Made by a program: the position numbers and the translations under genes
NCBI GenBank assembly: GCA_964187785.1
Contig: OZ076409.1
Span: forward strand, 47,308,001-47,372,000
DNA: 64,000 nt
Direction of reading: 5' to 3'
Origin: Amphiscolops sp. MND2022
Lineage: Eukaryota
Part shown: piece by piece, positions 27,105-62,606 of the stretch
How the letters are laid out: every line of letters starts with the position of its first letter
Numbering within the stretch: the stretch's first letter is position 1
Notes under the pieces: model-generated
What the model was told of the DNA's origin: nothing
What the model saw: the letters and a program-made list of their open reading frames with translations, nothing else
Database searches by the model: none

Positions 27105-28654
27105 GATAGTTTCGCTTTTCTTGATTACTTCTCGACTAATTTTCGGTATTCGTTTTCTTTTTGCCTTCACATTGATTCCGTTTCGATTCCGAAGACATGA
27201 CAGAACCGGAGACACGGTGTCCGGCCACGACTGCTATATCTGTTTAGTTATATTCCGCACATATTCCATATGGGAAAAGAAAATATTTAAATGAAACGTT
27301 TTTTTACAAAGTTTGCCAAGCACCAAATTTATATTCACATTGAAGGGTGTCACCCACAGAATTCAACTCACATAAGATTAGCTTCGAGATTTTTGGACTT
27401 TTTTGGGAATGACGAAATAGACCCCATAATGATCCAAAATGACCGCGAAAAAACCAAAAAATCCCGATTTCGATGCAATTTTTGTCAAAATTTAAATAAA
27501 CATCGTGGATTAGAGTGTTGAAAACGTTCAACAAGGGAAGAATTCTTTGTTCAGTAAACTTTTAAAGAGATACATGCGGTGTTTCAAAGAAAAATGACCA
27601 AAATGACGCTAAAAATGACAAAAAGTCCAAAAGTTGTAACAATTTTAATGCAATTTTTGTCAAGTTTTCAAAAGATATCGTGGATAAAAATGTTTAAAAC
27701 GTTCAACAAGGCACGAATTGGTTGTCCAGTAGTCTTTTATGAAGAAAAAAATGCGTTTTTTAGAGAAAGAAAATGACAAAAAATCACCCCAAATGTCATA
27801 AAAAGACAGAATTTTCCATTTTTTTTCTCATTTGTGTCATTTTTTCGAAAAACTTCATAGATTAGAAGGCCGAAAGTGTTCAACAAGGCAAGAATTCGTT
27901 GTCCAGTATTCTTTTGCGAAGAGATCAATGTTGTTTTGAAATGAAAAAAAAATGACAAAATGTTTGCAATATTGAAATTTTCAAAAATTTCCTGCAAATT
28001 TGTCAAGATTTCGACAGACTTCGTGTATTGGGAAGTTAGAAGGGGTCAACAAGGAAAGGTTTTGTAGTAGTAGCTTAGTGAGGAGAAAAATGCTATTTTT
28101 CCATCTGAATAATGTCTCGAATTGACACCGAAAAAGACAAAAGTTCCTAAATTTTCCAATTTTCACCGTTTTTTTCCAGTTTTTTGTCGAAGTTTTGATC
28201 GACTTCGTGGGTTGGATTGAAACTGTTAAACAATGTGAGCATATGTTGTTTCAGAAGACTTTTGTCAAGAGATAGAAACAATTTGTATTAGAAAAAAATG
28301 TATTCGTATTTCGAAGAAAATGTGATAAAAAGTTCAAAACTTTCAAGTTTTAGTCGTTGTTAATGCCATTTGCAAATTTTGTACAATTTCCGAGCAATTT
28401 CAAAGACTGAAAACACTAAATTGTTCGAAAATGAAACTACAAGCTATGTAGTACCCTTTTTGACGAAAACGTTGCAGCGTTTTGCTTCAAAAAGACTTCA
28501 GAATGGATGTATATATATATATACCCAAGTCGGTCTGACAAAGGACAATCATAATTTTGCAGTTGTTTGATGCATTACGATTAAATTGATTGACCCAAAG
28601 ATGAAATAGATGGTTACAGGAACAATTCAAGTTTTTCCTCCTGTACAAATCCTT

Positions 28655-30337
28655 ATGCCTTCAACCAGGAGACAAAAGGTGAAAACTAAAAGGTCAAGGG
28701 AATTGGGTATGTTATCTAATTACAGTAACATGGATTTAATGTTAGGAGACGGAAATTCAAACTCTATAGAAAGAGAATTAGACAGTCTCATAAATGGCCC
28801 AGAGGGGCCACAGGATATTCAGACTTTCCCAAATATGGAAACTTCATCTCGAGAGAATGAGATTAGAGATATCAGTAATTGAAATGAACCTGTTAGAGAA
28901 GGCAGACTAATAGAGTCAAATAATATGCTGTCTGGGGAGATGAATGCTAGAATGTCTCGGGAAATGGAGACTATGATGGACTTTATGCAAACTCAGATCA
29001 GTAGGGCTATAAACTCTACTATTAGTGAGAGAATAACACCTGAGATACAAAACATGATGGAAAATTCATCTTTGGTATTGAACCCCGTTTGTTTTTAAAT
29101 GAGGATGATAATGGAAACGTGTGGAAAAATACAAAACTTACAAAGAAGGACTCTAGGTCCGCTGGTGACTTGAGAGATCATACGGACACTACTCCTTACA
29201 TAGTGACAGGAGCCAACGAACTTCAACGTCCGATTCCTGAATTCCTCACAGGACGAATTCATTCTCAGCCAGACCCCCAGAGGCAAGAATCCGCACATGA
29301 TACAACCATGGATACAACTCTACCAGAAGCAGAGCCCGTCATGGCTGAACAACCACAAGACCCTATCAATCGACTGGCAGACGTTCTGGGAAATCTCCAA
29401 AACAAACCGCAATCGATGACAATTCGACCAGTCACGACGAACCCCATGACTTTTGACAGCAAAACTAAGAAGTTTGAACTATTTGAAGATTTATTTCAAA
29501 CCATGATAAAGATGCAGCCCGCTATCACAGAGCAAATGAAAATAAATCATCTTCATTCACTACTCAGAAAAAGAGCCCTGCAAACTTTTCGTAATATAAA
29601 CTCTAAAAACCGTCAAACACTAGAGGACGTATTGGTAATATTCCGCAGAAAATACGTCAAACCCGAATCACAAGCCACAGCAAAGCATAAAGGGCATATA
29701 CTTATTTTCGATCCTAACACGATGAAATTACCCGATTTTCTCAAAGAACTCAATCAGGGCGCCGCGAAAGCCTTCGGAGAAAATGCCAAGAGCATTATCG
29801 ATAGCCTCTTATACGCTAAATTACCTCCAAAACTCAAAAGATCAGTAAATATGGCCCGACTGGAAAACGACACATATGGGGTTATTGTGGGGCACCTAGA
29901 AGGAGAACTCGAAATAAACGCCTCAGAAGAATCCGACGATTTGCCCATTGCCACAAGTCATCGTCGGACAGGGCGCGAAATTTACTATCCAATGGCATTG
30001 ACACCAACAAGAACAACCAATGCTCATACTGCAAAGCTGAGGACCATTTCTGGAAAAAACTGTCCAAAACATAAAAAGAACAAAGAAATGGAAGCTATAA
30101 ACGGCAACAAAGATTCAACGTCCAAACTATCCAGAATGTCCCACTTGCAGCAAAACGAATCATCCGGCAGAAAAATGCTGGCGAGGTGCAGGAGCGCACC
30201 TTCGTCTGAAAAGGTCTAGACAGAACACCGACGAAGCCGAAGCTTCATGGGACGAGTGAACCTCCACTAAAATTGACAAAACTACAACGTCTTCATCAAG
30301 CCAAGCGACTTCCGAAAAGCCTGAGTCAAAAAACTAA
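28655..30337 (+). pseudogene. gag of element 2, initiating inside the LTR
   Basis: ATG (MPSTRRQK) at 28655. The frame, broken by a stop and indels, passes through the LTR end and PBS (Y-I-V-T-G) into TFD.K..KFELFEDLF..MIKM.P...E..KIN..HSLLR..ALQ, which also aligns with the intact gag at 61167-62606. Confidence 0.85.
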
Positions 30338-32818
30338 TTTTGCAACGACTCGAAATATGTAACCAAATGGCGATACGACACTATGTCATATCTGACCCAG
30401 CGATCATCATTTACAAGCAATCACACTACGAAACAACAGGAACACCATCAGTTGTCTGGCAACCACAGATGAAAAAAGCTTACATTAAAACTTACAAACT
30501 GGTCCACAACGACCGCCCAGACCAATACTAAGAAAGGGACTATACTACAGACTTTGAAACCCAATTCCGACCCCTCCAACTAATCGAAGGTTATAACCCA
30601 CAATATATTGACCCCGAGTGCGGCACTGATCCGTATTGGGACAATTCCCTCTATGACCAGGAAACCTTACAGTTCAAAGGTGAGGCACACCGACCAACTG
30701 ATGATGAAGATGACCCTGAAATCCCAGATAACCAATTATCTCGAGCTCTTATTGATTTATGGCAGCCAATTCCACAAATCAATAATATAGTAGGAATAGG
30801 TTACAAGCAAATTACAGATGAGGTACAAGCAACACATGGCCTACTCGACGAGACGGCTTTTCTACATGTCCTTGCAATCAAAGAGGGAGAACCGGCATAT
30901 GTACCTCTGTCCACAAACCTCGGACTAGAATACAAAAAGCGGACTCTATATTTCCCAATGGGTTTTGGAAAATCAACCATAGACGGCCTCATAGACTCCG
31001 GAGCTCTATCCAGTGCATTACCAGAATCGGACCTTAGGAAAATACGCCTCCTAGTGCCACAATCTATATTCAAAGAGGGACCCGCTCCGTCATTTCAAAT
31101 ATGGTCGCTAATGTACAATTGGAAACTCCAAAGAGCATCGTCGAACTCAAGTTCGAAGTAGGACATTGAATTCCAAGAAAAATAAATCATCTTCATTCAC
31201 TACTCAGAAAAAGAGCCCTGCAAACTTTTCGTAATATAAACTCTAAAAACCGTCAAACACTAGAGGACGTATTGGTAATATTCCGCAGAAAATACGTCAA
31301 ACCCGAATCACAAGCCACAGCAAAGCATAAAGGGCATATACTTATTTTCGATCCTAACACGATGAAATTACCCGATTTTCTCAAAGAACTCAATCAGGGC
31401 GCCGCGAAAGCCTTCGGAGAAAATGCCAAGAGCATTATCGATAGCCTCTTATACGCTAAATTACCTCCAAAACTCAAAAGATCAGTAAATATGGCCCGAC
31501 TGGAAAACGACACATATGGGGTTATTGTGGGGCACCTAGAAAGAGAACTCGAAATAAACGCCTCAGAAGAATCCGACGATTTGCCCATTGCCACAAGTCA
31601 TCGTCGGACAGGGCGCGAAATTTACTATCCAATGGCATTGACACCAACAAGAACAACCAATGCTCATACTGCAAACCTGAGGACCATTTCTGGAAAAAAC
31701 TGTCCAAAACATAAAAAGAACAAAGAAATGGAAGCTATAAACGGCAACAAAGATTCAACGTCCAAACTATCCAGAATGTCCCACTTGCAGCAAAACGAAT
31801 CATCCGGCAGAAAAATGCTGGCGAGGTGCAGGAGCGCACCTTCGTCTGAAAAGGTCTAGACAGAACACCGACGAAGCCGAAGCTTCATGGGACGAGTGAA
31901 CCTCCACTAAAATTGACAAAACTACAACGTCTTCATCAAGCCAAGCGACTTCCGAAAAGCCTGAGTCAAAAAACTAATTTTGCAACGACTCCAAATATGT
32001 AACCAAATGGCGATACGACACTATGTCATATCTGACCCAGCGATCATCATTTACAAGCAATCACACTACGAAACAACAGGAACACCATCAGTTGTCTGGC
32101 AACCACAGATGAAAAAAGCTTACATTAAAACTTACAAACTGGTCCACAACGACCGCCCAGACCAATACTAAGAAAGGGACTATACTACAGACTTTGAAAC
32201 CCAATTCCGACCCCTCCAACTAATCGAAGGTTATAACCCACAATATATTGACCCCGAGTGCGGCACTGATCCGTATTGGGACAATTCCCTCTATGACCAG
32301 GAAACCTTACAGTTCAAAGGTGAGGCACACCGACCAACTGATGATGAAGATGACCCTGAAATCCCAGATAACCAATTATCTCGAGCTCTTATTGATTTAT
32401 GGCAGCCAATTCCACAAATCAATAATATAGTAGGAATAGGTTACAAGCAAATTACAGATGAGGTACAAGCAACACATGGCCTACTCGACGAGACGGCTTT
32501 TCTACATGTCCTTGCAATCAAAGAGGGAGAACCGGCATATGTACCTCTGTCCACAAACCTCGGACTAGAATACAAAAAGCGGACTCTATATTTCCCAATG
32601 GGTTTTGGAAAATCAACCATAGACGGCCTCATAGACTCCGGAGCCCTATCCAGTGCATTACCAGAATCGGACCTTAAGAAAATACGCCTCCTAGCGCCAC
32701 AATCTATATTCAAAGAGGGACCCGCTCCGTCATTTCAAATATGGTCGCTAATGTACAATTGGAAACTCCAAAGAGCATCGTCGAACTCAAGTTCGAAGTA
32801 GGACATTGAATTCCAAGA
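29539..32818 (+). repeat. 1,640-bp near-identical tandem duplication of gag-protease
   Basis: 29539-31178 is repeated at 31179-32818, with AAAAT microhomology at the junction and only a handful of substitutions. Confidence 0.97.
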
Positions 32819-35800
32819 AAAATTTATAGTAACGGAAAAACTGACCAGTCCGATCATAGGACTAATGTTCCTACAAAGGAAGCACACAGTCCTGGACATG
32901 CGCCAAGGTATACTAAACTTCCCATACTTTTCAATGCAGCTTAAAACGGCTGACCACAAATATTCAAATGTCCTAGAACCCATCCTCAACCCGCATGATA
33001 TAACTGTTCCCCTCAAGGACTGCATCCTATTAGGGATTAAAGCCCAAATCTATACTGAAAATACTGTTACCGAAGTCCTCCAACCCAGTGATTTATTGCA
33101 TGAAGGGAGCAACATCACCTTCTGTGCCACAGTAGTCACATTGACCAACTGTGCCATAAACATCGATATCAACAAATTTAGTGATCAACCCTATAAACTA
33201 AAGCAATGATTACACATAGCAAAGTTCTCAGTGTTAACTCCTGAGCAAATGAAACATGGTAAACCCATTGATCCAGTGTCCACGTGGCATCAATTGATCG
33301 AAAATGAAGAAAATGTGATTTACTTGTCAGTAGCCTACTTAAGGCAAACAGAAACAATGACCAATACGAGCAATGCTGGTTCCCAACACCTAAAAACCCA
33401 AGGGACGAACAGTCCCATACGCCCATCCAGCGACGAATTCTTCAGGAACTACGGAACCTGCAATTTGCGGAACAATTGAACCCACAAGATATTGAGGCCT
33501 CGCGCAACCGATTCCTTAGTAATTTTGACTGCAAAGACTCTATGCTCCAACAGCATGAGATTGAAAGAACTGAAACACTCTTAGTAGAGTATCATGATAT
33601 CTTTGCTAGGCACAGATTCGACATAGGAATCAACGAGGAGTTTACAGTCAAATTGACCCCAAATGACGACTCCCCCGCCTATAGCCAAAGTCTTTCAACT
33701 CCAGTCAATCTCAAAGAAGACATAATGGTCGAACTGGCGTTATTACACAATAATGGCATAAACACAACTTTGCCGTTCTCCAAGTATGCCAGTCCCATCT
33801 TTGCGCAGAAAAAGCCCAATGGGAAGCTGCGACTATTGGTCGATCGAGGAAAATAAATAACCTCATTTCGGATGGTTACATAAACAATAATCATCCTGTC
33901 AGTACACTTACTGACGCAGCTCAACACATGGCAGGCAAGAAATTGTTTTGTAAATATGATTGTACACAGGCGTACCATTGCCAATGGCGGACCAAATGTC
34001 CATAGAGATGCTTGCATTCAGTTTCGCAAGCCGTACCTTTGCCTATAGAAGACTCGCCCAGGGCCTTAGTAGGGAATTATTGGCCTTTTCAAGCTTTATG
34101 CGAGAATACCTCGATAAAGTAATTAAAGCTGACCAATGCGCCTAATATGTGGACGACATAGGCATAGCCGCTAACGACGCCGACCACCTCATTCAAAACT
34201 TACGGGCAACTTTTGAAAGCATACGCCACGCTGGGCTGAAAGTTACAATGCACAAATGCCATTTTGGAGCCACAGAAATTGACTTCCTGGGAAGGACATA
34301 TACCCCAGAAAAAGTGAAACCACCAAGGGAAAGAATTACAAATTTCCTGGCAAAAGCAAAATTCCCAAATCCCAAAAAGGCCTTACAGAGACACCTTGGC
34401 TTCCTAATCTATTATAGGAACTATATGCCAAGGTTGTCCGAGAAACTTGCTCAATTTCTCCAACTTCTCAAAAAGACGAGAAGGTCCTGGTGACAACTGA
34501 ACTCATCAAACAATTCAATGAGATTAACAGCGACCGCGATAAATGCAGCCAATTAGCTTTAAAGCAACTTTTACCGAACAAGCAACTAGTCTTAATGACG
34601 GATGCTAGCGTTACGGCTGCCGGGTAAGCTATTCTTACCGAGGACGACCCAAATCAGAAATACACTTCTGTCAAGAAATCATATGCGCCCATCGCATTTG
34701 GATCAAAGACTTTCACGCCTTTACAGCTCAAAACGTCCATATACGCCAAAGAAATCCTAGCTGTTTACTATGCTTTTAAAGAATTTGGACATATCTTCTG
34801 GGGAACGTCTCAACCGATTACTATCCTTACGGACAACAAGTCGGAAACAATGTTCTTCCAAACAAAAATAATACCGCTGACACTCTGGAATACTTGTGAT
34901 TATGTGATGAAATTTAATTTCGTCATAGCACACATCCCAGGGAAAAACAATCCTGCTGCCGACTACCTTTGCCAAATGGAAGTAGATCCTAAAGATAAAT
35001 TAATCCTAAAAATCCGGGAAGACGTGGAAACACGGCCCATGGATGTCAATGTCCAATCAGCAGGCGTATCAGAAGAGGAACAGGTTTTCTTCACTGAAGT
35101 TGATGACGAGACAGAAGAACAGATTTGGGAGCGAAGAAACCAATGTCGTAACAACCCCATAGGACGAGAAGTCACAATCCAAATCGACGCAATATCAAAG
35201 AATGTAGTCGACGAAATCACAACTTTTACCCAGAAATTGCATAGAACTAATCAAATCCTATTCGAACAGTCCAAAGACCCTATTTTACAAAATGAAGACT
35301 ATTCGGAAGAGATTCTCCTGCAGGATACTCGTTATAAGCACTATCTCAACAATTTGGACGGGATAGTCCTGAGAGACGAGACAGTCACACGACAATATTG
35401 TTACGAAACTGGACAGATTAAATATAATCAGATCCTCTTACCAAAACACCTGCTAAAGGAACTCTTACAAGCGTTACATGGAACAGCACACAAACACCCT
35501 GGCATGTCTAAAATGCTCCAGGAAATTCGTCAAAAATATTACTACCCCAGAATGGCTAAACATGTTAAAAGATGGGTAGAAGGTTGCGAATCTTGTGCAA
35601 AAGACAAGCGCGTTTCAAACAACTCAATAACACTTGAATTACTCATTTTGCCCGAATGGGACCTTGGATCAGAGGATGCACTGCAGATTGATCTACTGCC
35701 AAACCTACCAACAAGTGGACGTTACGAAACAGTAATGACGGCCATTGATGTCTTTTCAAGATACCTGTTTGCCTACCCGCTAACTGAAGCTACCGCTTCA

Positions 35801-37070
35801 AATACCGCAAAGGTCCTAACAGACATAATGACAAAACATTCTTTTTTGCCGACTCGAAGGAACTGCCTTACGTCAAAAATTATAGCAGAAATAACGCAGA
35901 TCCTGGGAATAACCCTGGGATAAACAACCACTAAAAGTCCACAAGCAATTGGTGAACTAGAACGGACGCACGCCTCATTAAAAACAAATTTGAAAATGGC
36001 CTCAGGGGAATACTGCCATCAATGGCAGAAATATTTGCCACTAGCTGTGCTCAATTATAATACAACTTATCACTCCAGTGTAGGTTGTGAACCCAGCAAG
36101 GTTTTTCACGGACGGATTCCCTACCACGTCTTAGATCATAAACTTGGAAATAATCCCAACAAGGATTTCTTGCCTACAACGGAATTTGAAGAACAATTAC
36201 AGAAAAGAACGCAAATTCTAAGTGATCAAATAAAGAAAAACATTAGGCAGTCATACTTGAAATACAAAGGAAATTATGACCTAAAAGCCAAGGTAGCCCC
36301 GCTGAACGACCAGGATTTTTGTTTTATCCTGCAACCTAAAGCTGATAATCAAGGATCGAAAATACCAACCAGAGACAACCGTTGGATTGGACCCTATATA
36401 ATTGAAAAGGTATTACCTAATGACAATTATATGGTCAGGCGTCTAAATACTAATAAAACGCAAATACTACACCGTATCAGGATCAAAAAATTTGTCCCGA
36501 ATACACCTTCAGAAGACAAGTACAGTAAAGAGAAATTACAACCTGACGAAGAAATCGTCATACCCCAAAACGACCTACATACAATCTCTTGGGAAGCCAA
36601 CTTTGATTATGAAACATTTGAGCCGAGACAAGACGCTGTCCCACACGGGACTACGCAGCGAGACGCTGCACATACAAGTGACGCGACAGAAAATGACGTC
36701 ACCGAAAGAAGAATACTGATAGACGAATCGCCTTACGCGGCAGAATATGAAAATGACGTCACCGAGAAAGATGAATGCAGAGCGACAAGCAAGGACGCAG
36801 AAAAACCGAGTGGGCCGACGGCCCCAATAGTCCAGATGTGGCTAATTCGCCTCCTAACTCGGAAAATATTGATAATGATGGTCTAAATGAGAATGCCGAG
36901 GATACTAACGTTTCCAATAGGGGCGGAGATAAACGGTGCCCGGAATATCAGATGATCGAAAAGCAAATGAAAATTCCGATGAACATGCAAGCCCTAGAGG
37001 GGGGAAATATAACTTTAGGTCTAACCCTACCCCAAACTTTACTGATGAATACAGATACCAGACAGAAATG
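31980..37070 (+). pseudogene. pol of element 2 (PR-RT-RH-INT)
   Basis: IDSGA; YASPIF..KKPNGKLRLLVD; YVDDIGI (about 34146); TDAS; ADYL; integrase LHGTAHKHPG...CESC, QIDL and WIGPY. Many frameshifts. Confidence 0.94.
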
Positions 37071-37233
37071 TAAATTAACTGTCCCCATTCCCTGATTGCC
37101 ATGAAAAGACATGTATTTTGACTGGGACTTAACTGTCTAGACATACTGAATACATATCAAAAAAAAACAAAAACAGACTCAGAAGGCAAATGTAAACCTG
37201 TAGCAACTGAAAACAATTGTACAAAATGTACAA

Positions 37234-40200
37234 TTACTCTTTACTATTTACCTCGCGGAGCTCTTTAACTGCTTTTGAAACTTCCTCACGGGGAATATCG
37301 CCAAAGTAGGCACGCTTCTTTGATTTCCCTGGTGTAGGGATAACAACGCGTTCTTCCATGGTGGAAAGAGAAGACGGAGCAGGACGAGTAAGCGGTTGAT
37401 CATCGGCAGACTGGGAGAGAGACTGGCAAGCGGCACTCAGCTCCTTGAAATTTTCGCTTCGTCCAAAAGAGTTCACATGGACCCTTGGTTCCCCGGCCAC
37501 ATTTCCTGAACTAAAGCGGGTTCGGAGGCTGCGATACTTCTCCATAGCTTCATCAGTTGTACAGGTGGCTGCAGAACTAACACCATTGGCAACATAAGAC
37601 TGAGCGGGAAGCATCAAAGGGGCAAGTCGACATCGGGGGTGAGAAAAGTTGGCTCCCTGGATGCGAATAGGAGGAAGCTCGGGACTTGACACAGTCAGGC
37701 ACAAGCAGCACAAGCGGAAGAGATAATACAAGTGCCTACGACCACGGAGTGCCGGGATGGGAAGTAGCAGATAGATCATATCACCCATTAAGTTCGGCTT
37801 GTCAATGAACTCCTTGTATGTGATTCGAAAGAAATCCACAAACTCTAGGTATTCATCGCGGGTATCGGTCTCAGAGGAAGCTTCTACCCACCCTCGTAAC
37901 TGGAAGCAATTGATTAAGGACAAAAAACACTGGGAGACCCTCTCGAATGGCTGGAACAACAAAACGTGAGGCTCGTAGGAAGGACATACCCTGGACGATA
38001 TCCATTGTAATTCTGACGTCCTCTTAGGGCATCGTCCAGCAAGGAAACAACGTAGCTGCGAGCACCGGCGATAAATTCTTCCTTTACTGTTTCCATCAAT
38101 TTCTCTAGAGGCGTGGTCCCATCCTTAAAGTCATGAAAGACTCTCTCAAATCTGGTCCGGCAAGGTCCATCTAAATCAGTTTTGAGTTTCAACCGAGTCA
38201 AGAAGTCTCGGCTTGAAAGTTGGCGCTGGTCCTCAAGGGCCAGGTAGATAAGGCCAAACCAATCTGTCTCAGCTGGCAAATTCTTGGGTAGGATTGCCCG
38301 GTAACAAAGTTTCCGGATGTAGCAACTCAGCTGTCCAAAGTTGAAGAAATTAGTGTCGCGTTTTCCACTAATGCTTCGCTCGAAACACTTTATGTCTAAA
38401 CAAGACAAAGCAGTTAAAACTGGGGACAAGGCCTAGTTAGGATCAGGTGAGAACAAAGTCTGCAAAGAAACTGCGACAAAACCGACTGAGGGTTTATACC
38501 AAATCTAAGGACTGTGGCAATGAATACTAACAATCGCGGACTATGCGGGAGAAGAACTCCAGTTTCACCACAAAGAACTCGTCCATCATGATCATCCACT
38601 CAAGGCTTTGGAGCTAAAATAGAATAGAAGACAGAGTGACCTTTTCCCATAATGCACCTAGGGAACCTAACGCTACCCACAAAGCCTTGTTATCAAGGTT
38701 GAAAAGATGGAAATATTACCCTGTTACGAACTCCTTGCATTATCTGGGAAGTTGCCTGTTTTGTAATGTAGTCCAGGATGGAAGACCAGTTTGCAACAAG
38801 CTCTGCACAAAGAGCTGGAAGGGTCACCAAATCGTAATCGCGTATCGTAAAACACAATAAGGAAACGGAGCTGTGAACACAGTAGAATTGGCCCAAAGAT
38901 ATTGCCTCCTGTTTGTCGCAACAAAGGTGTGAAAGTGCGGGGGTTGAACAGAAAAGAGTAAAGGACCCCGTGGGCGAAAAGGCCTGAACGGTCCAATGTC
39001 TCGATAATGACTGAAGGACATCCTGAGATGCTGACTAGACTTGAACTGGAGGAAAGCAAAGATAACACACGGGTCATAGAGGACAGGAATTATGCAGGGG
39101 ACTCCTCGGTCACTTCGTGGCGAAATAATTGTACCTTGGTCAAGAAATCATCATGCCAGTATCTGATGGAAAGGTAGCGATGCGTTCCTTTTTGTATCAA
39201 ACTCGAGAGAAAACATGCCCGTCCTGGCCACTTGGGCAGAGATATCCTCAACTCCGAAGGTGAAATTGTGCTGGAAGATGGTCTGAAAAGAAAAATACGA
39301 TTCAGTCTGCAACCAAGTAACGCCTAGATGGGCCGAGAGAAATTAGAAACTTACTATGAGTGTTGCAGAGTCCCAAGCAAAGTCAGCGAAGAGCGTTTGA
39401 TTGTTCATGAATTATCCTACTCTGCCCCATACGGTCTGCAAACATCTTAGATTTCCATCACTAAGTACGAATTTACAAATTAAAGAAATCTGGCCAGCTT
39501 GTCTGTGTTCCTCTGGGTTACCTAAGGCGTGCTGATTGGCACGGAAATCGTCGTAGAAGGGCATTTTGTCACCGATGTCCACCAATGGCGCAATGATGAA
39601 TAAAGGCAGTTGCGAGCTCTAATGGAGTGAGTATGTGTCCATCCTTTCCCCTAACGTCGTGAAGGACCTCCCCGGTAGTATTGTCAACTGTCCCAAGGTG
39701 TTCATAACGCCAGCGTTGATCTTTACGGAGATGGCTCTCTTTCTGATAATGGCGCAGGCGCTCTCGGGCCCCTTTTGAGTAAATAGACACATTGGTCTTA
39801 CATATTTGGCAGTAAAGTTTTATTGGTTATGTAAGGGATCTAACGGTCCAGTCACGAAGATCTTGGTCCATTTTATGCCTTTGAAGTAGGCATCTTTTAT
39901 CATTTTGCTTGGCCTACACATCATACGTTGCCTCTTGCGGGGTGGAATTGGCACGACGAAAGAGGCCTATGGTCGTTGCTGCTGTGGCCGCTCGCTGAAC
40001 TAGGTCTCGGATTTTCAGTGTCGGGACAAGCTGGGTTGCCTGGTGTTTCGGGCTCCGGGGTTCGAGCGGTAGAGGTAGTTGGTTCTGCATCTCTACAATA
40101 GACTACACTCCGTGGATCATCGTCGGAGTTTATAGCCCCACTTGTATACTCATCACTAGTTTGGCCATCATCGGTACTGAAGGACTGAAAACGTGAAGTT

Positions 40201-41019
40201 GCTGCAGCCTTTTTCAATTGTTTCCCTGACTTGTCGGTCACTTTTCGACTTTGGGCTTGTAGGAGTAACGATTTCATCATTTGGAAACTAGAAATGACGC
40301 TCTCATCGGCTTAAGTACGCAGGACCTGGTGCATCTGCGATTCACTGAATGCAATAGTTTGGTGGCCAATGGGCAGTTCTATGGGCTTGTTGGCAGAAAA
40401 GTATTTGCTGATGGTAGCCATTTCGGTCGCAGATAACTCTCGAGGCGTGGACGCCAAGGTTTTTCTGTTTTGGGCCTGTTCAACGTCGTTATGGCAAGCT
40501 TCACTGTGCAGGTCGCCTACGAAGGCAGGAAATGAACTAGTTCCAGAGGTAGTAGCACGAGCTTGTTCGGCATCGGCAGCAACTCCAGAGCTATCATAAA
40601 GCTCGTCCAAATCACTGGAGTCTGTCTGCAATAACTCTCGGAGGGTAGTCTTTCTCCCTCCTGTGACAATGTCCTGACTGGATTTTTATCAGTTCGTCCA
40701 GAGCTACTCGCTGTCACAAGAGTTAAAGGATCGGACACAGAAACTTTCTCTCCTGGGCCATCAGATGAAGAGGGCAGTTCCGCTGACGTCTCTTGTGCCT
40801 CGGCGTCTTGAGTAGTGTGGTCAGGAGTCATGGCAGTGAGGGTTCGCTCCACAAATGTTGTTATGCTTTCATCAGTTGACCCACTACTGGGCTTGTGACG
40901 GTTTCTTGCCTAGTGTTGGCAGCTGCGTTTGTGGACTCACTCTCAAGATTAGTGGAGCCACACAGGTCCTCTTCGCCAACTGTGGTAATTTTGGGGATCT
41001 CTTTTTCTTCAGTGGACAT
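37234..41019 (-). pseudogene. Antisense spliced ORF in element 2: hAT-transposase-like protein with zinc finger, about 1,240 codons, decayed
   Basis: Chain of minus-strand frames from MSTEEKE (41019) to the stop at 37234. Disordered acidic N-terminus, then YCQICKTNVSIYSKGARERLRHYQKESH, then FSLEFD...YLSIRYW. A GTAAGT...TTTTCAG intron lies at 39354-39283. Confidence 0.7.
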
Positions 41020-42122
41020 ATCTAGGAAAATGTCACCAAATAAGCGGAAGTTCCTGTGCATGAAGGTGCCCTTGTTTACCGCATTTAAAATCTTCCGGAA
41101 CTTAATTGAAATGATCTCTATTAGAGAAGAGTGACTTGTGAGTCAAAACAAAATAAAAGGGACAGGAAGTCAATGAACGAGACGGAAGCCCTGATCAAGC
41201 TCATTTCCGTTCAAAACGAAAATTGAAACCAAAAACTAACCATACGAAATGGGCATGAGGTTGAAAAATCTGATTTTGCATTTGGGACGACGTTGTCTGA
41301 AGGACCAGCAAGGTACACTGTGCTGTAGGAGATAGGGATAGTCTGAATAATGGCTCTTCGTCTCAAGGGAAATTGGACCGCCTGGGCTGCCGTTCCAGAA
41401 AGGCTGACTCGTTGATGAGGGGAAACAACAAAGCGACTAATAAAAAAACTATATAAAGAATGTACTGATATGAATGACTGATTTAACAATGATAAAACTG
41501 GAATTTTTGAAAAGTGCGAAAATTGGAGTTCGTGGCAACCTGAAATTGATGTCAAATATTTATACATTTATGCAATTATTTTGTGGATGGCATCTGCCAG
41601 GAAAATCCACATCGGTCGTATTTCAATATATTTCAATTAGTAACATTTTATTTTTCACAGTTATTTCCGTTATTTCCTTGTTTGGATTGTTATTTATCAA
41701 ACCATCGTATTGGAGGAACTTAGCGCTAGTGGAGTCTTATTGGCTGTTGGGGTTTCATTGACACGTGAGGCCTACAACCGTATTGATGGCTACTTGAAGT
41801 TTTCAAGTGGTGTGTAAGAGAAGAAAAACACTTAACGAAGCCCTTCAGGACTACTAGCAAATTGAGTCAGGCAAATTGATGAAGATCACTAGTCAACAAA
41901 AGAAAAGCGGCAAGCCTCAGAGACTGTTTAGGAAAGCTTCACGGATGAGGCGCGGGTCACGGGAAACAAAACCCGGGAAATATAAAGCGGGAGTGAAAGG
42001 AAACCTATCTCGAAGCCGGGTAGAGGAAAGCTTCGTTCAACTATTGTTTCTTGAACTGAGCAGTTGCTTCCATAATACTTCAAATCTTAGTCAAAATTGC
42101 AAAAATCATAAAAGAAAAATTC

Positions 42123-42965
42123 ATGGCTGCCTTATATCCAGAGGACTTCCAAGGTGCAGCGTCCTCAGGAGACGATATCATTATTATATCTAGTGACGAA
42201 GATGAACTTATGGACAGCCTGAGCCTAACATCGGTGTTTGATTTACAACTCTCATCTGAAGGAGAGGAAGAAGACGAAGAAAATAATCTGATGGCTAAAT
42301 GCGTTGAGATGGAAATGTCAGCGCCAACCCCCATCCCAGGACCATCTTATGCAGTAAGAGCCAAGGAGGAAGTTGGCCTGCCATGGCTTCCAGAAAATGA
42401 AATGCAGACGAGGCCGGTCACACCAAGACCGATGTTCGATCCCTCTTACTTCTCTTTAGGAAGACAAGAGAGATGACAGGCTCAGGGATGGTCGTCCTAT
42501 TACATGATGCAGAAATTTAGTCCCGATGATAGACACCCCTTTGTCTCCTCCACCGCAAGAGAGAGGACCGACCGATGACATACGTCCTACAGTGTTTTGT
42601 GACGCTCATGGCGATCAACACCAAAGGCCTGATCGAAGTCTGGAATCAATCACGAAACACTTCCAAGGAATGGGACTAAGCGGGACTAACTCACTAGCTG
42701 GTTATTCTGACTGCGTAATATGTGGAAAGCTGTCGAACAGGTCAAAGATGAGGCAGTCACTGACTATCTACACAGAACTGCAATTCCTAACCAGTCTCTA
42801 CAGCAATTCGATGCGAGGAGGTTGGTTTTCCTAGAAGGGATGGAAATTGGTACTTTTCTATTACTCCCAGGAGGAGTGTCGCAGGCTGCCGCGGGTGACG
42901 GCAATCTGTACACGATTGACTCAAGCCGACAATACGCCCTGCTGGGCACATTGCCACTACAATGA
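42123..42965 (+). pseudogene. Accessory ORF3 of element 2 (acidic, SIM-like IIIISSDEDE, Cys/His cluster)
   Basis: Three consecutive frames broken by a stop and frameshifts. Preceded by TATAAA near 41980. The 3' end is conserved in the related copy at about 47370-47455 (minus strand). Confidence 0.6.
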
Positions 42966-45964
42966 AATTTTCAAACTGCTAGTAAAAATTTTGGAACTTT
43001 TACATATGTTGTTTATAATAATTTGCATGCAAATATAGTGAATCATATAATATGTTCAATATTTGAGAGCAAGTTCTACTGACAGGCAGAAAGAAAACGA
43101 GTTCAAATGTCTGCCTGATCAGTATAGCTAGCATGGCCGGCCGTGGCATAATAGCCAATCAGGGCTCTTCATTCATTTACCGCTGCTTTAATTTATAGTG
43201 CACTACAAATACTCAATTGGAATGGACGCACAAGGCAATATGGCTTTGCTGGTCCTAATATGTGAATTGGTTGATGCTGTATTATTTCACACCATTTGGT
43301 TGCGAAATTATGCCTTACACGATAGTCAGACATGCAAGTCGTGTATGAATGTACATGTAGTGTTGCGATATAAATGAAATGTTCATGGTTGCTATGATAC
43401 GTTTATTAATAATCAAAGCGGACTAAAGTAATCATTTGATCCTTTGTGTTTTGAAGCTGTACGCAATGCAATCAGTAAAGGACAAACAGGGCATTCTCTT
43501 ACCGGTCTCATCCAATCAAACCAAATTTGGTGATGTAGTGATACAAATTTAAGCCCAACATGGTCAACAGGCCAAGTGTGGTTTACATGAATTGAATTAC
43601 ATGAAATCACAAACATGTAAAACAGTACTATTTTAACTGTGCTGTATTATACGCCCTACGCGGCTACGCGTCAGTGCCCCCCCCACTGTGCGTAGCACGT
43701 TGCCCTTTGATCTTGCCGCTCCGCTAGTCGAAGTGACGTCATGTATTCCTTCAACCAGGAGACAAAAGGTGAAAGCTAGAAAGTCAGGGGAATTGGATAT
43801 GTTATCTTATTACGGTAACATGGATTCAATGTTAGGAGACGGAAATTCAAACTCTATAGAAAGAGAATTAGACATTTTCATTAATGGCACAGAGGGGCTA
43901 CAAGATCTTCAGACTTTCCCAAATATGGAAACTTCATCTCAAGAGAATGAGATTAGAGATATCAGTAATCGAAATGAGCCTGTTAGAGAAGGCAGACTAA
44001 TAAAGGTAATTAATATGCTGTCTGGGGAGATGAATGCTAGAATGTCTCGGGAAGTGAGACTATGATGGACATTATGCAAACTCAGATCAGTAGGGCTATA
44101 AACTCTGCTATTTGTGAGAGAATATTACCTCAGATACAAAACATGATGGAAAAGTCACCTTTGGCCCAACAAGGCATTGAACCCTGTTTGTCTTTAAATG
44201 AAGATGGTATTGGAAACGTGTGGAAAAATACAAAACATACAAAGAAGGACTCTAGGTTCGCTTGTGACCTGAGAGATCATACGGACACTACCCCTCACAT
44301 TTGCTTTGTTTGAATATTTTTAGACATTTTTGGTAATATAAAGTTTTCGAGAAGCTTGAGAAGATAACTGAGTTTTCAGCAAGCTTTTAGAAGAAAGTTT
44401 CCTCAGAATGACCCCAAATTTGCGAAAAACACTGAAATTTTGTAATTCTTCTAATGAGTTTTCTGTATGAATTTTGAGCAAATTCCTTGATCCAAATGAT
44501 TCAAAAACTCTGTAGTGAATAAATTTGGTATCTAGTAGGCGTTTTTGAAGAGGTAAATACAATTTTTTGTCGGAATTGGCCTTAGAACACCACAAAACTC
44601 AAAAAAACGTTTTTTGACACAATAACTCCAAATTTTGTTCGAATAACGAAATATTTCTGTAGATTAGAGCATCCTTTGACCTGAACCCTGAACGTTGGAA
44701 CAAGACGGAATTCGAAATGCAGTTTGTGGTTGAAAGTGGGATAGAGTTCCTCACATTTAACAACGAAGGCGCCAAAAATTCAGAATTCTCCTAATTTGTA
44801 ACATAGACCCAGTTTTAACGCTTCCTAAAAATTTCTTTCAATCAAAAAGCCCAAAGCTTCAAAACGTGTAGCTACCGGTAGTGTTTTGGAAAGATATCGA
44901 GCAATTATTCTAGCGGAACGTCCCGAAAATGTTACTTGAAAGCGTAAAATTTATTCGAACTTTTCTGTCAAACATACAATTTTCAAAAAACTCCATGCAA
45001 AATCACTAGGTATGGAGTTCGTTTTTCAAAAAACTGATTCTTGCAGTTCCCCAGGTAGGTAGAAAGCTAAAGAAAGATCCAAAAATCGAGAATGTTTCGA
45101 TTAGATTTTTTAGATGAGACATCTGTAGTTTCATCATGTGAAGGACACTAGCTCCAATCTTTTACCCTTTTGCCGAAATTAACCCCAAGAAAGACGCGCA
45201 AACTAAAAAGAGACTCGCAAACTAATTTTTCTCCAACAGGAAAAACAAAGAATCCATTTTTTGAATTTTTTCGGTAATGTCCCATAGTGCTGCAAAACGT
45301 TTCAGCTCGCAAAACTTCTCAGGTCAAAATCATTTTTGAAAGTGAGGGTCACCTTTCGACCAACGAAGGTTTCGGAAAGACGTACAGATTCGAAAAAAAA
45401 ATTCGGAAAGTCGTACAGACTGGAAAAATTACTTTTCTCAAGCAAGCCGCAATCAGTTAAAAAGCAAGGGAGCATCCTTCGACTAAATGAAAGTTTCGAA
45501 AAGACGCACAGAGCCGAAAAAACTGAAATGAGGTTTTTCCACAATCAATAAGAAAACTCATCACTTGCACAGGATCAAAATCAAACAAAGAGATCAACCT
45601 CCAGGCTCGGCAAACATATTTCCTCTACTGAAAACCACAAAAACTTGACATTTAAAACAAATTCGGTAAATGATCTCGGGAAAGTTTTTAAAAATTTTTC
45701 CTAACTCGGTAAATCGCACAGGACCCAAAAAACGAACATTGGCCAGCTTTGCTTGCAAAACGCTGTAGTTTTTGCTGAGAAACGAGGGATGGAGTTTAGG
45801 TCTGCAAAATAGTGTAAAAAAAGTCGTATAGTCCCGAAGAAGTTTTAAAGGTGGAAACTTGGGTCTTCTCCTACTTTCCCATTAAATTTTTTTGTTTTCA
45901 ATGGCTATTGTTGAGCCTCAAATTTATGTTGTTGTGAACTGTTAAGAGTGGATTGAATGATATC

Positions 45965-47460
45965 TGTAAGGAACAAAGTGCGTATCTTTTCTGAGATCAC
46001 AAGTGGACCTTGAGTCTTTCTTTGTAAATTCCATGTTTTTGGTTTTCCAAGCATTAGCAATATTATACCCAGTTAAAGCCGTACACGGCTCTGGGCCATT
46101 GCGACTTAAAGCCAAACTTCCCATTGTATTTTGTATTTCAAGAATGATTCTATCAATAATAGCGGACCTTTTTGCCCTATTGATCTGCGACGGCCTTAGA
46201 TCCATCAACGAATCCGTTTCTCGAGAAAGTCTTTCATTCATTTCATCAAACAATATGTTAATAGATTCCGAAAGTCCTTCTGGTCTGATTGACCCGTTCC
46301 TATTTTCAATATCTCTAATCTCGTTCTCGGGAGATGAATTTTTTCTATTAGGCAAGGACTGTAGGTCTTGTTGTCCCTCAGTGCAGGTTTTTAGGCTATC
46401 CAGTTCTCTCTCTATAGAATTCGTATTACCTTCATCTAACATGACGTCCATGTTACCGTATTGGGACAATATGTCCCGTTCTTGATTTTCTACATTTTGC
46501 CTTTTGCTTTCTCGTGGAAAGCATGAATACTTGTACAGGAAGAAATTTTCAAATTGTTCCTGTAATCTTAATGTTAAATCCGATTGTACAATGAACACTT
46601 GAACAAAAGCAACTTGTATCGTAGTTTATTTCAATAACTTGTGTCGTCTAATGCCCGGGTTGGGTAGTTATACCTACACGAGCATGACACTCAAGTCTAC
46701 AAGGATCATGTTACTAAAAACAGCACTGAACTAAGAATAGTAACATTTTATCATTCTAATTATAGGAAATGCTGTCATAAATGTTTGCAGGGGAGGCAAG
46801 GTCAAAGGCTTGCGCGGTTGAGGAGCAAGGGGGAGTGACGCATGTCCAAATACGGTCTTGCAACAAATATATCAAATCACGGTTTACACGTTAACACTAC
46901 ATGCATGTTGAATTGGTTAGGTCGCTTTGTCTACCTGGCCGTATTTAGCCTTCCGTAAAATCCATACAAGGGAAGGGTTATTCATAGCAAAATTAGCTCT
47001 TTAGTATTTCATCAATGGAAAGGTCTTATACAAGTAGAGCGCCTTCTAATGAATGATTAACATCAGCTAAATAGAATTGACAAGTAAGGCCAGCCAGGCC
47101 GTGTGACCTTACTCGTCCTTTCCGCGTAAGTATTAGTACAGCTATATAATTAACAAAGAACCAACTAATATCAACTGCGCTGTGATTGGCCAGCTAGCCG
47201 GCGACGGTCTCGTTGAACAGGCAAAACTTTGAACACGTTTCATTTCTGCCTGTCAGTATAGCTTGCTGTCAATTGTTATTTTACATGGTTGAAACACTTA
47301 TGACAATATGCATTGAAAACAATACTATTAAGTTTCAAAATATTAACAGGGATTTGAGAGTTCCAGTCTTTTAAAGGTAGTGTTCCGGGCAATGCGATTT
47401 GACTTGTGTGGTCTATGATATATATGTTGCCATCGCAGGCGGCAGCCTGCGACAATATCA
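45965..47460 (-). mobile_element. 3' end / LTR fragment of a relative of element 2
   Basis: Minus strand ends ...CCTTACA with no PBS after it. Encodes a homolog of the LTR-borne Gag N-terminus (YGNMDVML.EGN.NSIERELD...TKKDSRS.CDLR) and shares blocks with 42870-43720. Confidence 0.85.
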
Positions 47461-58793: not shown

Positions 58794-59507
58794 TTACCAT
58801 CTCGGGAATCTGAGGTTGCAGCCATGTCCTCGTCCTATTTTCATCCGACGACAGCCACACGCCAGACCGGGAGCGGGCTGTGACAGGGCCACTCCTCTGG
58901 GGAAAACAGCTCCCCCAGGTTGTCTCATCATGAAGTTCGTTGTGAGGGGACCTGGATAGTGAACTGCTGTCGAGTGGGTGAAGCTTGGGTCTTCTAAGTC
59001 ATTCAGCGGGCTTATGGGCCGGAAACTGATCTTCTTTGGCGTTCCAGGAGGTGTGCTGAAGTATGAGCCTGAGTCCTCTTGGTGTATTTTTTCGATATAC
59101 TCTGCTACTCTGCTGCTTGTTATCGATTGGGCTGACTCTGTTGATTCTTCCACTACAAATACATCGGAACTCATGCTCTCATCGGGACTTTCTGGGCTGT
59201 CTGGCAGGTCTTCTTTCCGAACTCTTATAGAGTCCTGTTGCGGGGCGTGCGTCTCTGATTCAATTGATTCCAGGCTGGAACTAAGCCTTAGACTTTTGCA
59301 GCTTGACTCAAGGGAATCCGTTGAGATGTCGAAGCATTCCTCTTCGTCCGCTGTGGCTTCATTCGACGAGTGTGACATCTGTAGTATTATTCTATAGTTG
59401 GGGACAATTTTGCGAGGAATGGGCGTCGAAGCGCGTTCCAAAATTCCCTCCTCGTCTTCGCTTGAAGATATATCGATGAGTTCATAGACGTTCTTGAGTC
59501 CATTCAT
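58794..59507 (-). CDS. Accessory ORF of element 3 (237 aa, Ser/acidic, SIM-like LIDISSSEDEE)
   Basis: Uninterrupted ATG-to-stop ORF in the element's sense orientation, downstream of the pol remnant. No signal peptide or TM segment visible. Confidence 0.65.
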   Translation of the reverse strand: MNGLKNVYELIDISSSEDEEGILERASTPIPRKIVPNYRIILQMSHSSNEATADEEECFDISTDSLESSCKSLRLSSSLESIESETHAPQQDSIRVRKEDLPDSPESPDESMSSDVFVVEESTESAQSITSSRVAEYIEKIHQEDSGSYFSTPPGTPKKISFRPISPLNDLEDPSFTHSTAVHYPGPLTTNFMMRQPGGAVFPRGVALSQPAPGLACGCRRMKIGRGHGCNLRFPRW

Positions 59508-60579
59508 TTTTGTAGCTATTGTTAAGTCTGTAGTCTTCGGTGTTGCTGTATTCTACTTGTTGACTGTTCCACAATGAACTTAGGATTATTTTGGGATTAA
59601 GGCGAATTTCAGGATAAATCCCTCTATTCTGATTGGTTAAACAATCGTTTTAATCCTTTTTAATCCTTTCCGATCAACAAGTGTTGACGTTTTGATAACG
59701 TCGTGTTTTTATTGGCTGCAAATTAAATTAATCCGCTTTAGCCAAACTTGTCAACGTTATGCTGACGTCATTTTCGCTAGCTTAGCTAACTTTTGTTTTG
59801 TCACCGTTATGATGACGTCATTTTAGATTATAGGATTAATAATCCAGTAACCTTTTTGTCGACGTTATGCCGACGTCGATTTCGCTGATTTTCCAATCAA
59901 CTTTTTGGTGCTGACGTTATGCCAGCGTCAATTTCGTTGGTGGTTTGCCAACTTTAAGTTTGTCACCGTTATGATGACGTCAATTTGGCTGTTGTTTTCA
60001 TCCTCGTTCTGTTTTCAGATTCACTGCTGTTTGTGATGGACGGTGATCAAGTTTCGTCCCGCCATGATCCCGGAGCCCAGAGTGGCAATGAGACAAACTT
60101 CGTCTTTTCGGAGACTGATGTGCGTCACAGCGACGCTGATGAGGTTCGGCGAGTAGTTACTGGTGAGTTCATCATTTCTCAATCCATTAAGCTTTTATGG
60201 ATAGTATGTTGATTACAGTTAGGCCTTTTCTGCATCACACTTCCATAGCTTAGATTTTCTGGCGCGCCGATATTCGAAATGATGTTTTAGTGCCACCTCC
60301 TGTACAGGAAGCCTGTTTGCCAGCTTCTGGTTCTACTGCTGATACCTTGGCTGTTGATCAGTCTGCTGATGATGTTCTCTTAGTTGACCCGCCAGGGGGT
60401 CAAGTTGCTGCCGAAGACACTGAAACCGAAGGGCTCGACGTTCCCTTGTCGCAGCTGTTGCCTGACCTTAAGTCCTTTCCTGCTGGGGGTGTTCCTTCTG
60501 AGGCTGCGACTGTAGCTGTTCCATCTCACGGAGGTGAGATTGCTTGTCCCCCCAGAGAAAAGAAGGTAGTTGGAGGGGA

Positions 60580-61170
60580 TGGAATGTCTGCAGTGGCTAT
60601 TGGCTGCTCTAGTTGTGCGTTTGCGCATTCAATTTTGAAAGGAGGTTGGGGGTATTCTTTTATGACACAGCTATCGGTATTCATCTTGATGGCATTATAG
60701 TCTGACCATGACATGGCATTGATGAACGCACCTGAGTCGACAAGTCCGTCCATAGTGATTTCTCCAAATTCAAGCGGTAGATAGAGCATTCTTCGCTTTT
60801 TCTTGAGGACTATATTCGAGTGGAGAGGTAAGTACGTCTCTCCGTCCTTTTCAGTGACATACTCCTTAATAGAGTTAAGAGATGCGGGGAAATCTTCCGG
60901 GAAGATAGGTACTTGGGTGGAGCCGTGAGTATCTTCCTTTGTCAGTGGTGACGATGGTTGGTCTTCATGGTCCTCATCTGGTGTTTGCTCTTTTTCGGTT
61001 TGTATGAGGGGTCTTCGTATGGAGGCGAGTGCCTGACGTCTCAGCCAGTCCTCTGTTGGAGTTCCATCGCATTCTATTGTTGTATCTGTTGTGTACGTCG
61101 TAGGGGGATCGTTCGTTAAGTACGCCCTCGCGTCTACTGTTTCCCCGAAGCGCAGGCGCGGCGTAATTAG
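60580..61170 (-). pseudogene. Truncated pol (aspartic protease only) of element 3
   Basis: LYLPLEFG...GLVDSGAFIN...FKIECAN..LEQPIATADI, then an abrupt switch to low-complexity sequence. Confidence 0.85.
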
Positions 61171-62606
61171 TTTTTTGAGTCAGTGACAGTGTTAGCTGTT
61201 GCTTGTTGGACGGGAACGTCCTTTTTTGGTTCTGAATTGTTGTGACGCTTAGGTCGTGGATCGTTGGCAGAGTTGGCTCCGTTCCAACAATCTTCCGTTT
61301 TGTGGGGTTTGCCGCATGTTTCGCATTTGAACGGTTTGCCTGCACTCGTGTTAGTTTGACCATTGTTTTTTCTGGTTTGCATCCATTTATCTCTCTTCAT
61401 TTTCCTGCATTCTGCCTTATAGTGTCCAAATTTGTTGCAGTGGAAGCAATATCCTTTTTTGACATTTTGCGTCGTGCTGTCGACTTGTTTGGACTCAGTT
61501 TTTGCTGGGGCTGGTTCTACCTTGTTTAGTGGTACTAAGGTTACCTCATCCGGTGCTCCAAGGCCGTTAAGTCTCATTTCGCGTTCTAGGTGGAGTACTA
61601 TATCATTATAGGGTTTATCCTCGAGGTATGCCTTGTTTAGTATTTTCTTGACGTGGTCTGGCATCTTTGCATAGATCGCCTTATCAATAAATTGTTGGGC
61701 TTCAGAGCCAAAGGCTTCCTTGGCAGTTTTTTGAAGTATGTCCAGAAATTCGTGGAGTTTCTGGCTCGAGGGATCGAATTTGAGCGCATCCCATTCGCAT
61801 CTTGCCTTGGCCATAGACAAATAGTCTCCAAAACGTCGCTTGAAAATTGTCATTATTTCGTCAAGGGAATCCTTTTTCGTGTCTTCTATGTTGCAAAACG
61901 CCTGGAGGGCGTCTCCTCGTAGCAGTGAATGGAAATAATTGATTTTTTGTATCTCCGTGAGATGTGGATACATTTTGATGTTGTTACGGAAAAGGTCCTC
62001 AAATAATTCAAATTTTTCCGATTTCCCGTCGAACGTTGGGAGAGATGCCGTTAATGCTTTTGGCATAGGCAGCGTAGTGCTGTCGCCTTTTTCCGACGCA
62101 AACAAAGTTCTCGCTACAATTGGACGTTCTTTTGACGCCGGTTGACTTTGAGACCGGGCTTTCGTTCTTTTTGGCTGGTTAGTGGAGTCGGTTAGAACTC
62201 CTGTCACCATGTTACGACTGGTGTTCGGGTCGTTTTGTGTTGAATTTATCCTAACAAGTTTAGTAGGGGTGTAAAAACTTCTAGTGTCATTTTCTATTTC
62301 TTCCTCGACATTTTCCCTAACGTTTCCCCTTGTTTCAGGTTTTAAGAGTTTCAACATTTCTCTCTGGGAGTCGATGAGGAGATTCTTAATTTCAGACGTT
62401 ATTTCTTCCTTCAACGAGGCTCTCAAGCTTTCTAAGAAACTATTTTCCACCCTTGAAGATTTTGGTTCTGACGGGCCTGCGTCGTCAACATCCTGGTTTG
62501 GAAGACAAGGGTTCCTTATTTCTACCGGTGAAATAAAACCTTCACTTACATTCTCATTGCTCTCCTGTTGGATGTTTCTTCTCTTTTGACTTCTTGTTGT
62601 AGACAT
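61167..62606 (-). CDS. gag: Intact Gag polyprotein of element 3 (479 aa from the MSTTRSQK ATG)
   Basis: Open frame with a capsid-like region (LPTFDGKSEKFELFEDLF...) and two CCHC knuckles, CFHCNKFGHYKAEC and CETCGKPHKTEDC. Confidence 0.93.
   Translation of the reverse strand: MSTTRSQKRRNIQQESNENVSEGFISPVEIRNPCLPNQDVDDAGPSEPKSSRVENSFLESLRASLKEEITSEIKNLLIDSQREMLKLLKPETRGNVRENVEEEIENDTRSFYTPTKLVRINSTQNDPNTSRNMVTGVLTDSTNQPKRTKARSQSQPASKERPIVARTLFASEKGDSTTLPMPKALTASLPTFDGKSEKFELFEDLFRNNIKMYPHLTEIQKINYFHSLLRGDALQAFCNIEDTKKDSLDEIMTIFKRRFGDYLSMAKARCEWDALKFDPSSQKLHEFLDILQKTAKEAFGSEAQQFIDKAIYAKMPDHVKKILNKAYLEDKPYNDIVLHLEREMRLNGLGAPDEVTLVPLNKVEPAPAKTESKQVDSTTQNVKKGYCFHCNKFGHYKAECRKMKRDKWMQTRKNNGQTNTSAGKPFKCETCGKPHKTEDCWNGANSANDPRPKRHNNSEPKKDVPVQQATANTVTDSKN

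Follow-up and report, generated by a model that had tools for sequence, protein, structure and literature searches.

The window analysed here (64,000 nucleotides of contig OZ076409.1 from Amphiscolops sp. MND2022, positions 47,308,001 to 47,372,000) holds a decayed copy of a real and large lineage of Gypsy retrotransposons with long terminal repeats (LTRs), in which a further gene lies between pol and the 3' LTR, on the strand opposite to gag-pol. As an earlier reading made without database searches (the sequence-only reading) had reported, minus-strand coding DNA converges on pol in the window, running from ~41070/41019 to a stop at 37234 and starting with an acidic, Ser/Thr-rich N-terminal region. 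In this copy the antisense region is a pseudogene with frameshifts and seven stops (nine partly overlapping high-scoring segment pairs), and part of the apparent frame damage arises because the gene contains introns. Searches of the 1.07-Gb eukaryotic assembly with DNA and protein queries gave at least 44, 108, 134, 150 and 150 scored matches from 703 to 7,713 candidates, and 20 kb were fetched around each of 30 matches picked across subfamilies.

These sisters are Ty3/Gypsy elements by their LTR ends, primer-binding site (PBS), polypurine tract (PPT), target-site duplication (TSD) and pol order. Intact elements measure ~15.7-16 kb and have LTRs of 1.55-1.75 kb (TG...CA) and 5-bp TSDs such as CCGGC, ACTGC and ATGGC (the 5' LTR in the window is truncated); the LTR pairs are at least 99% identical in 20 of the 30. 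According to Pfam, sister pol is ordered protease, dUTPase, reverse transcriptase (RT), RNase H and integrase, with the dUTPase between protease and RT (PF00692, E 5.6e-5, L035:4987-9999) and no match to a chromodomain. The 3' part of the LTR is coding and includes the start of gag, which begins in the 5' LTR and crosses the PBS; this applies to the final ~550 bp (28730-29200 and 43745-44300 in the window), and matches to the gag exon occur in both LTRs of the sisters. A second accessory open reading frame (ORF) of ~280 aa, with an acidic SSDEE N-terminus and CxxC (for example L036:5533-6423), is divergent in orientation from the antisense gene and shows ratios of non-synonymous to synonymous substitution rates (dN/dS) of 0.06-0.29; it had no Pfam match and no transmembrane segment. 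An env-like reading was rejected, since neither accessory protein of L035 has a transmembrane segment. Two young, internally deleted elements, L117 and L131 (contigs C1 and C11; LTRs 99.8-99.9% identical), are without part of gag-pro or RT but have kept their antisense gene open; at least 14 copies of the L117 allele type are among the matches listed. Head-to-tail tandem arrays with shared LTRs and a spacing of ~14 kb were also observed (L133; contig C5:3373936-3402973).

Comparison among copies indicates that the antisense segment is a single spliced gene of five exons, which would encode ~1,200 aa. With exon ends projected across the 30 copies, 111 of 120 intron sites carry GT-AG in register (28, 27, 27 and 29 of 30 for the individual introns, with phases 0, 0, 0 and 1), and the introns differ in sequence between copies and range from 62 to 180 nt. 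The out-of-register cases are decayed copies, L131 (where the offset was corrected by hand) and L133 (a precise intron loss). Stop-free products of 1,085-1,240 aa were obtained from 21 of the 30 copies. The distant homologues P0023 and P0008 cross the intron-1 junction in register with no intron, and such precise losses, of intron 1 in these two and of intron 3 in one allele (L133, L134 region), suggest that cDNA made from spliced antisense mRNA took part in recombination. Exon 1 encodes, in this order, an acidic Ser/Thr-rich region of ~390 aa (S+T 22-25%, D+E 14-16%), a basic motif resembling a nuclear localisation signal (NLS), PPRKKRR, of which the type precedes the finger in all four copies checked, the finger itself, and a helical linker. 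The finger seen by the sequence-only reading is present, with a spacer of 16 rather than 15 residues (W..F followed by C-x2-C-x16-H-x5-H, window 39811-39731), and its region is the best-conserved part of the protein. The antisense gene is under purifying selection: the core from the finger to exon 5 has a median NG86 dN/dS of 0.068 (range 0.059-0.131), below 1 as had been anticipated, for the 9 of 210 non-independent pairs with 0.1<dS<1.5, the others being near-identical or saturated. The N-terminal ~390 aa evolve faster, with dN/dS mostly <0.4.

The position of the gene is fixed as well. In 30 of 30 fetched sisters it comes right after integrase, on the opposite strand, and in distant families (probe P0150, ~30-36% identity) the C-terminus of pol was found on the opposite strand, 2.7-3.6 kb downstream, at 11 of 12 loci; the twelfth had no pol match. 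All loci were picked for carrying the antisense gene and so test for its free-standing occurrence, not for its presence in every sister; no free-standing gene was seen among the 30 close and 12 distant loci sampled. Around the gene, the 21 intact copies share no terminal inverted repeat (TIR) when exact matches are considered, in agreement with the lack of TIRs reported from the window, and the best inverted match between the flanks does not exceed 12 nt, is AT-rich in most cases and is a different one in every copy; hAT-type TIRs with an 8-bp TSD were not found, the position being fixed inside LTR elements. Nested insertions are described as common (PMC7264820, accessible sections), and a hAT transposon nested as passive cargo in one LTR element would account for a transposase-like gene at this place. 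However, the position of the gene is the same in 41 of the 42 loci, which range from near-identical copies to families at ~30-36% identity to the probe; the gene has a dN/dS of ~0.07 and conserved introns, and it lacks a shared TIR and apparently also a catalytic triad. We regard nesting as refuted by position, selection, introns and the missing TIR, and its probability as vanishingly small. The gene thus belongs to the LTR element as an integral component under selection, as the sequence-only reading had proposed in calling it captured, and matches the description of an aORF-3R (antisense, between pol and the 3' LTR, conserved).

Within this fixed position, alleles are exchanged between backbones. 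Five pairs of elements (L035/L039, L035/L133, L127/L149, L111/L113 and L115/L119) are mostly 94-99% identical in gag-pol, second ORF and LTRs and 40-76% identical in the antisense gene; on one side the swaps break immediately after pol, on the other ~0.5-0.9 kb upstream of the antisense ATG. RT dS is 0.01-0.05 in four of the pairs and 0.19 for L115/L119, and dS of the antisense gene is saturated. Congruence with RT, which had been expected of a captured gene, was rejected in all five approximately unbiased (AU) tests (p 0.0016 or lower; 18 elements, with groups picked after the data had been seen), the two trees conflicting because the gene is exchanged. Of the 59 copies of a single backbone (second ORF at least 97% identical), 16 have allele B, 17 allele Q and 5 allele C, which makes 38 copies with an allele and 21 not assigned. 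This 97-100% identical backbone thus bears at least three alleles, of 53-66% mutual identity, and C and Q are present on other backbones too, which shows a spread of the recombinants. The antisense gene is not alone in being exchanged: LTR and second ORF have also been swapped as a unit (L035/L031, L135/L137). The LTR contains conserved non-coding blocks, and so does the region upstream of the antisense gene, where they lie near the 5'-side breakpoints of the swaps. Neither 8-mer arrays nor a motif shared specifically by LTR and upstream region were found. Since the alleles occur independently of LTR type and no motif arrays were found, a strict lock-and-key relation of allele to LTR is unlikely, and a lineage-wide conserved target, or a host partner, fits better.

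Predicted structures suggest a probable source of the protein. The model of exon 2 has the topology helix, b1-b2-b3, helix, b4, helix, which is RNase H-like. In Foldseek and a second structure search RNase H-like folds dominated, with Hermes at or near the top, and hAT transposases ranked first in both Foldseek libraries (E 5e-3 and 6e-3). Residues 130-235 of exon 5 weakly match Hermes 426-567, in the correct order relative to exon 2. The fold searches with exon 5 itself (Foldseek and the second structure search) were uninformative. The motifs named by the sequence-only reading, EDISAQVARTGMFSLEFD (FSLEFD at 39213-39196), YLSIRYW and CLTVSSPELPP, are all present in the window; FSL..D was taken to mark the start of a hAT core, and its D is not conserved, the column being mostly E, T, Q, S or A across homologues. 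The protein appears to be non-catalytic, as had been suspected, with the DDE triad and the CxxH histidine probably lost: counterparts of hAT D180, D248 and E572 and of the C/DxxH histidine were not found at registers taken from the range ends of structural matches (±2 residues), where b1 has no conserved aspartate and only an invariant E27, the second-D position is S, the His position is F and the final-E position is P or C, depending on register. Exon 5 likewise has no ERxFS glutamate, in keeping with the motif not being evident from the window.

Other results stop short of placing the protein among the hATs. Structural scores are middling, and ISCth4 (IS256/Mutator-type) ties with Hermes in the fold search. 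Neither fragments of the window nor intact exons had a Pfam match to hAT, BED, DUF4371 or TRP28 domains, and the finger, read earlier as BED-type, was not scored as zf-BED and had sub-threshold C2H2 matches only. Profile searches of PDB sequences returned chance matches only, such as ribosomal L24, and HMM and HHalign comparisons (local and global) with 10-12 resident hATs and 74 DUF4371-type hATs, for HHalign as profiles of Ac and DUF4371 type, did not rise above shuffles, whereas an ordinary resident hAT, as positive control, finds Hermes at E 1e-26. One non-significant HHalign match (score 19.8) set YSLEF..SIRYW on FSVLVDE..CLRYV, in the expected register. A DUF4371 search of the genome itself was without match, as was its control; a word-seeded search with exon 5 among longer proteins had none; and short windows around 20 further hAT dimerisation-domain matches contained no closer donor type by eye. 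Leads from the ESM Atlas were weak and unrelated and were rejected. A profile search of 1.84 billion representatives yielded 350 clusters, of which the listed ones that were aligned belong to the same family.

The label hAT-transposase-like has its support from the fold searches, which put hAT transposases at or near the top, and hAT membership is not established, with no significant support from sequence or profile tests (Pfam, HMMER, HHalign). From the structural models we consider hAT ancestry likely. The tie with ISCth4 would suit a donor among other insertion-domain DDE transposases (Mutator/IS256-like, P, Kolobok or an undescribed group), an origin compatible with either function discussed below; but the first rank of hATs in two Foldseek libraries, the exon-5 match to the C-terminal region of Hermes, the apparent long insertion and the W..F-C2H2 finger upstream of the core, which we take to be a BED-like layout, make such a donor unlikely. 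Still less probable is an RNase H-like fold not derived from a transposase at all, such as a captured host gene or nuclease, for which the Hermes matches would simply reflect a common fold: two separate exons match Hermes collinearly, with a C2H2 finger ahead of them.

The window copy itself is old (Table 1). The remnants of its two LTRs share 90% identity across 558 bp, and a deletion of ~136 bp near 38845 has taken out intron 2 and the flanking exon edges. The true 3' LTR starts at 42877, directly after the PPT, and no tRNA gene is present in the window.

Table 1. Features of the element copy in the window.
Feature	Position	Strand	Remarks
5' LTR remnant (last ~690 bp)	28514..29200	+	corresponds to the 3' portion of LTRs in sisters; 43744-44300 matched at 90%
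Decayed PBS	29201..29214	+	sister version is TGGTGACAGGAGC
Decayed gag-pol	28730..37074	+	ends approximate; gag, protease, dUTPase, RT, RNase H and integrase in intact sisters
Antisense exon 5	37234..38395	-	~385 aa, helical, basic Ser-rich tail, no ERxFS glutamate
Intron 4	38396..38531	-	GT-AG, phase 1, 136 nt
Exon 4	38532..38613	-	82 nt; length identical in 28/30 sisters
Intron 3	38614..38719	-	GT-AG, phase 0, 106 nt; precisely missing from sister L133
Exon 3 remnant	38720..38841	-	beside ~136-bp deletion
Exon 2	38850..39282	-	predicted RNase H-like fold, degenerate catalytic positions
Intron 1	39283..39354	-	GT-AG, phase 0, 72 nt
Exon 1	39355..41076	-	~590 aa in sisters; start approximate, conserved Met at 41019
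Conserved non-coding blocks	41160..41600	.	upstream of antisense gene; candidate promoter or 5' UTR
Second accessory ORF	42124..42965	+	broken; ends inside 3' LTR
PPT	42867..42876	+	
3' LTR	42877..44300	+	TG...CA; internal ~240-bp deletion near 43745

Near-perfect duplications stand in this otherwise old sequence, one within gag-pol (a 1,645-bp tandem duplication, 29539-31183/31179-32823; 99.6% over 29539-32823) and one at 56557-58350/62207-64000 (99.8%); they are either recent tandem duplications or assembly artefacts. At 45965-47300 (-) lies an LTR-like relic of a related family, 67% identical in the coding part, which shares a conserved LTR block of ~60 bp, holding a short inverted repeat, with 43058-43121 (81%). 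Further decayed retroelements occupy 1500-7040 (+) and 58794-62696 (-), with zf-CCHC, rve and a HEPN-like match at 4462-5103 (PF18736, E 3.7e-5) that has 211-bp direct repeats on either side, and a DUF1759 gag at 61167-62696. Tandem repeat arrays were found at 949-1318 (22-bp) and 27428-28100 (~175-bp).

We propose that a Gypsy ancestor gained an intron-containing DDE transposase gene with a large insertion, most likely from a hAT, in antisense orientation behind pol, and that its catalytic residues were lost and the entire protein was retained as an accessory factor. The gene would have its own antisense promoter in the conserved upstream block, and its introns would outlast reverse transcription because the genomic RNA represents the opposite strand, is unspliced there and so would not lose them beforehand. 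The protein would be nuclear, given its NLS-like motif, and bind DNA through the finger and the transposase scaffold, and with its acidic Ser/Thr-rich N-terminus it may work in trans to activate transcription of the element or to counter its silencing, comparable to TnpA and VANC for DNA transposons. To a catalytically dead, nuclear, DNA-binding accessory factor that promotes or protects transcription of the element we would give about an even chance. An integration or nuclear-import cofactor of the same dead-transposase origin, which would tether the pre-integration complex, or the ends of the cDNA, to selected chromatin, could also explain the NLS-like motif, the best-conserved finger region, the retained scaffold, a pol with no chromodomain match and alleles independent of LTR type; however, ~390 aa of acidic low-complexity sequence would better suit a transcriptional role, and we judge the cofactor to be a minority possibility.

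Template switching by RT within the conserved flanks may carry alleles of the proposed regulator between backbones, and the maintenance of several side by side would be in line with an advantage of rare types under host defence or competition between elements. The genome has many hATs (at least 150 scored PF05699 matches) and one backbone bears several deeply diverged alleles, as might be expected if the protein interferes with hAT transposases or with BED-type factors of the host, by poisoning them or competing with them, and conflict drives allele diversity; but it shows no detectable similarity to the 12 resident hATs sampled, and therefore heteromers are doubtful, and the benefit to the Gypsy element would be unclear, so that this explanation seems quite improbable. 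In its full form our proposal is that a class I element domesticated a whole class II (hAT) transposase as a dead regulator, at a polymorphic, exchangeable locus whose ancient alleles counter different host-silencing states or rival elements, and we put it forward tentatively, as a possibility on the less probable side. If true, the gene would be a retrotransposon counterpart of TnpA and VANC, with a cassette exchange resembling antigenic variation. The lineage is young and abundant, and one backbone with at least three alleles (16, 17 and 5 copies) offers a built-in comparison of allele with expression, small-RNA load, chromatin state and insertion site, using existing data types.

Antisense accessory genes of LTR retrotransposons have been described before, and the statements that follow refer to the accessible parts of the sources cited. 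In plant Gypsy elements, antisense ORFs between pol and the 3' LTR include those of Retand (TRP28/PF04195), Grande (gene23), RIRE2 and PvRetro13 (PMC11963269, PMC7264820), and brtn of the Boty elements in Botrytis and Sclerotinia is a further antisense accessory gene (Zhao et al. 2011, cited in PMC7264820 and PMC8365987). The plant ORFs resemble the present gene in place, orientation, conservation and presence in most copies; they are probably nuclear and DNA-binding, and an own antisense promoter has been shown for Grande. They are described as being without similarity to other transposable elements (TEs) and of unknown origin, and both origin and function of such genes are stated to be open questions (PMC7264820). 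In contrast, the protein described here would comprise ~1,200 aa from five exons on a predicted RNase H/DDE-type scaffold, is swapped between backbones and had no TRP28 (PF04195) match by Pfam scan. Spliced, antisense, profile-dark genes of this kind slip past ORF-based and Pfam-based TE annotation. Bdelloid rotifer LTR elements also have a dUTPase in pol and modular, shared extra ORFs, but their ORF3s are env-like or of GDSL or DEDDy types, and the word "transposase" does not occur in the main text (PMC5408684).

Accessory regulators encoded by TEs are known from DNA transposons, namely TnpA of Spm/CACTA, which is transposase-derived, and VANC of MuDR, and FAR1/MUG are transcription factors made from dead transposases, the loss of DDE going with a regulatory role (bioRxiv 10.64898/2026.08.24.746577, PMC13547354). 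These proteins are encoded in DNA transposons or by the host and recognise cognate motifs that occur in clusters, whereas the gene described here travels in a class I element, the search for motif arrays had none to show and each allele is independent of LTR type; the main text of bioRxiv 10.64898/2026.08.24.746577 has no whole-word use of LTR, retrotransposon or Gypsy. With hAT transposases (Hermes; ZBED and ZMYM/DUF4371 types) the protein appears to share the order of finger, RNase H core, long helical insertion and last helix, but it has no DDE, CxxH, ERxFS, TIR, 8-bp TSD or Pfam hAT domain, no RW motif was noted, and it carries an extra acidic N-terminus of ~390 aa. Among titles and the starts of abstracts, with Repbase Reports, most subscription papers and bioRxiv supplements outside the search, our search turned up no description of an LTR element with an entire dead DDE transposase among its genes. 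Antisense accessory genes are thus known, and what is unusual here is the size of the gene, its probable class II origin and the exchange of its alleles. With a DNA transposase as a plausible and traceable donor, domestication would have run between classes of mobile elements rather than to the host.

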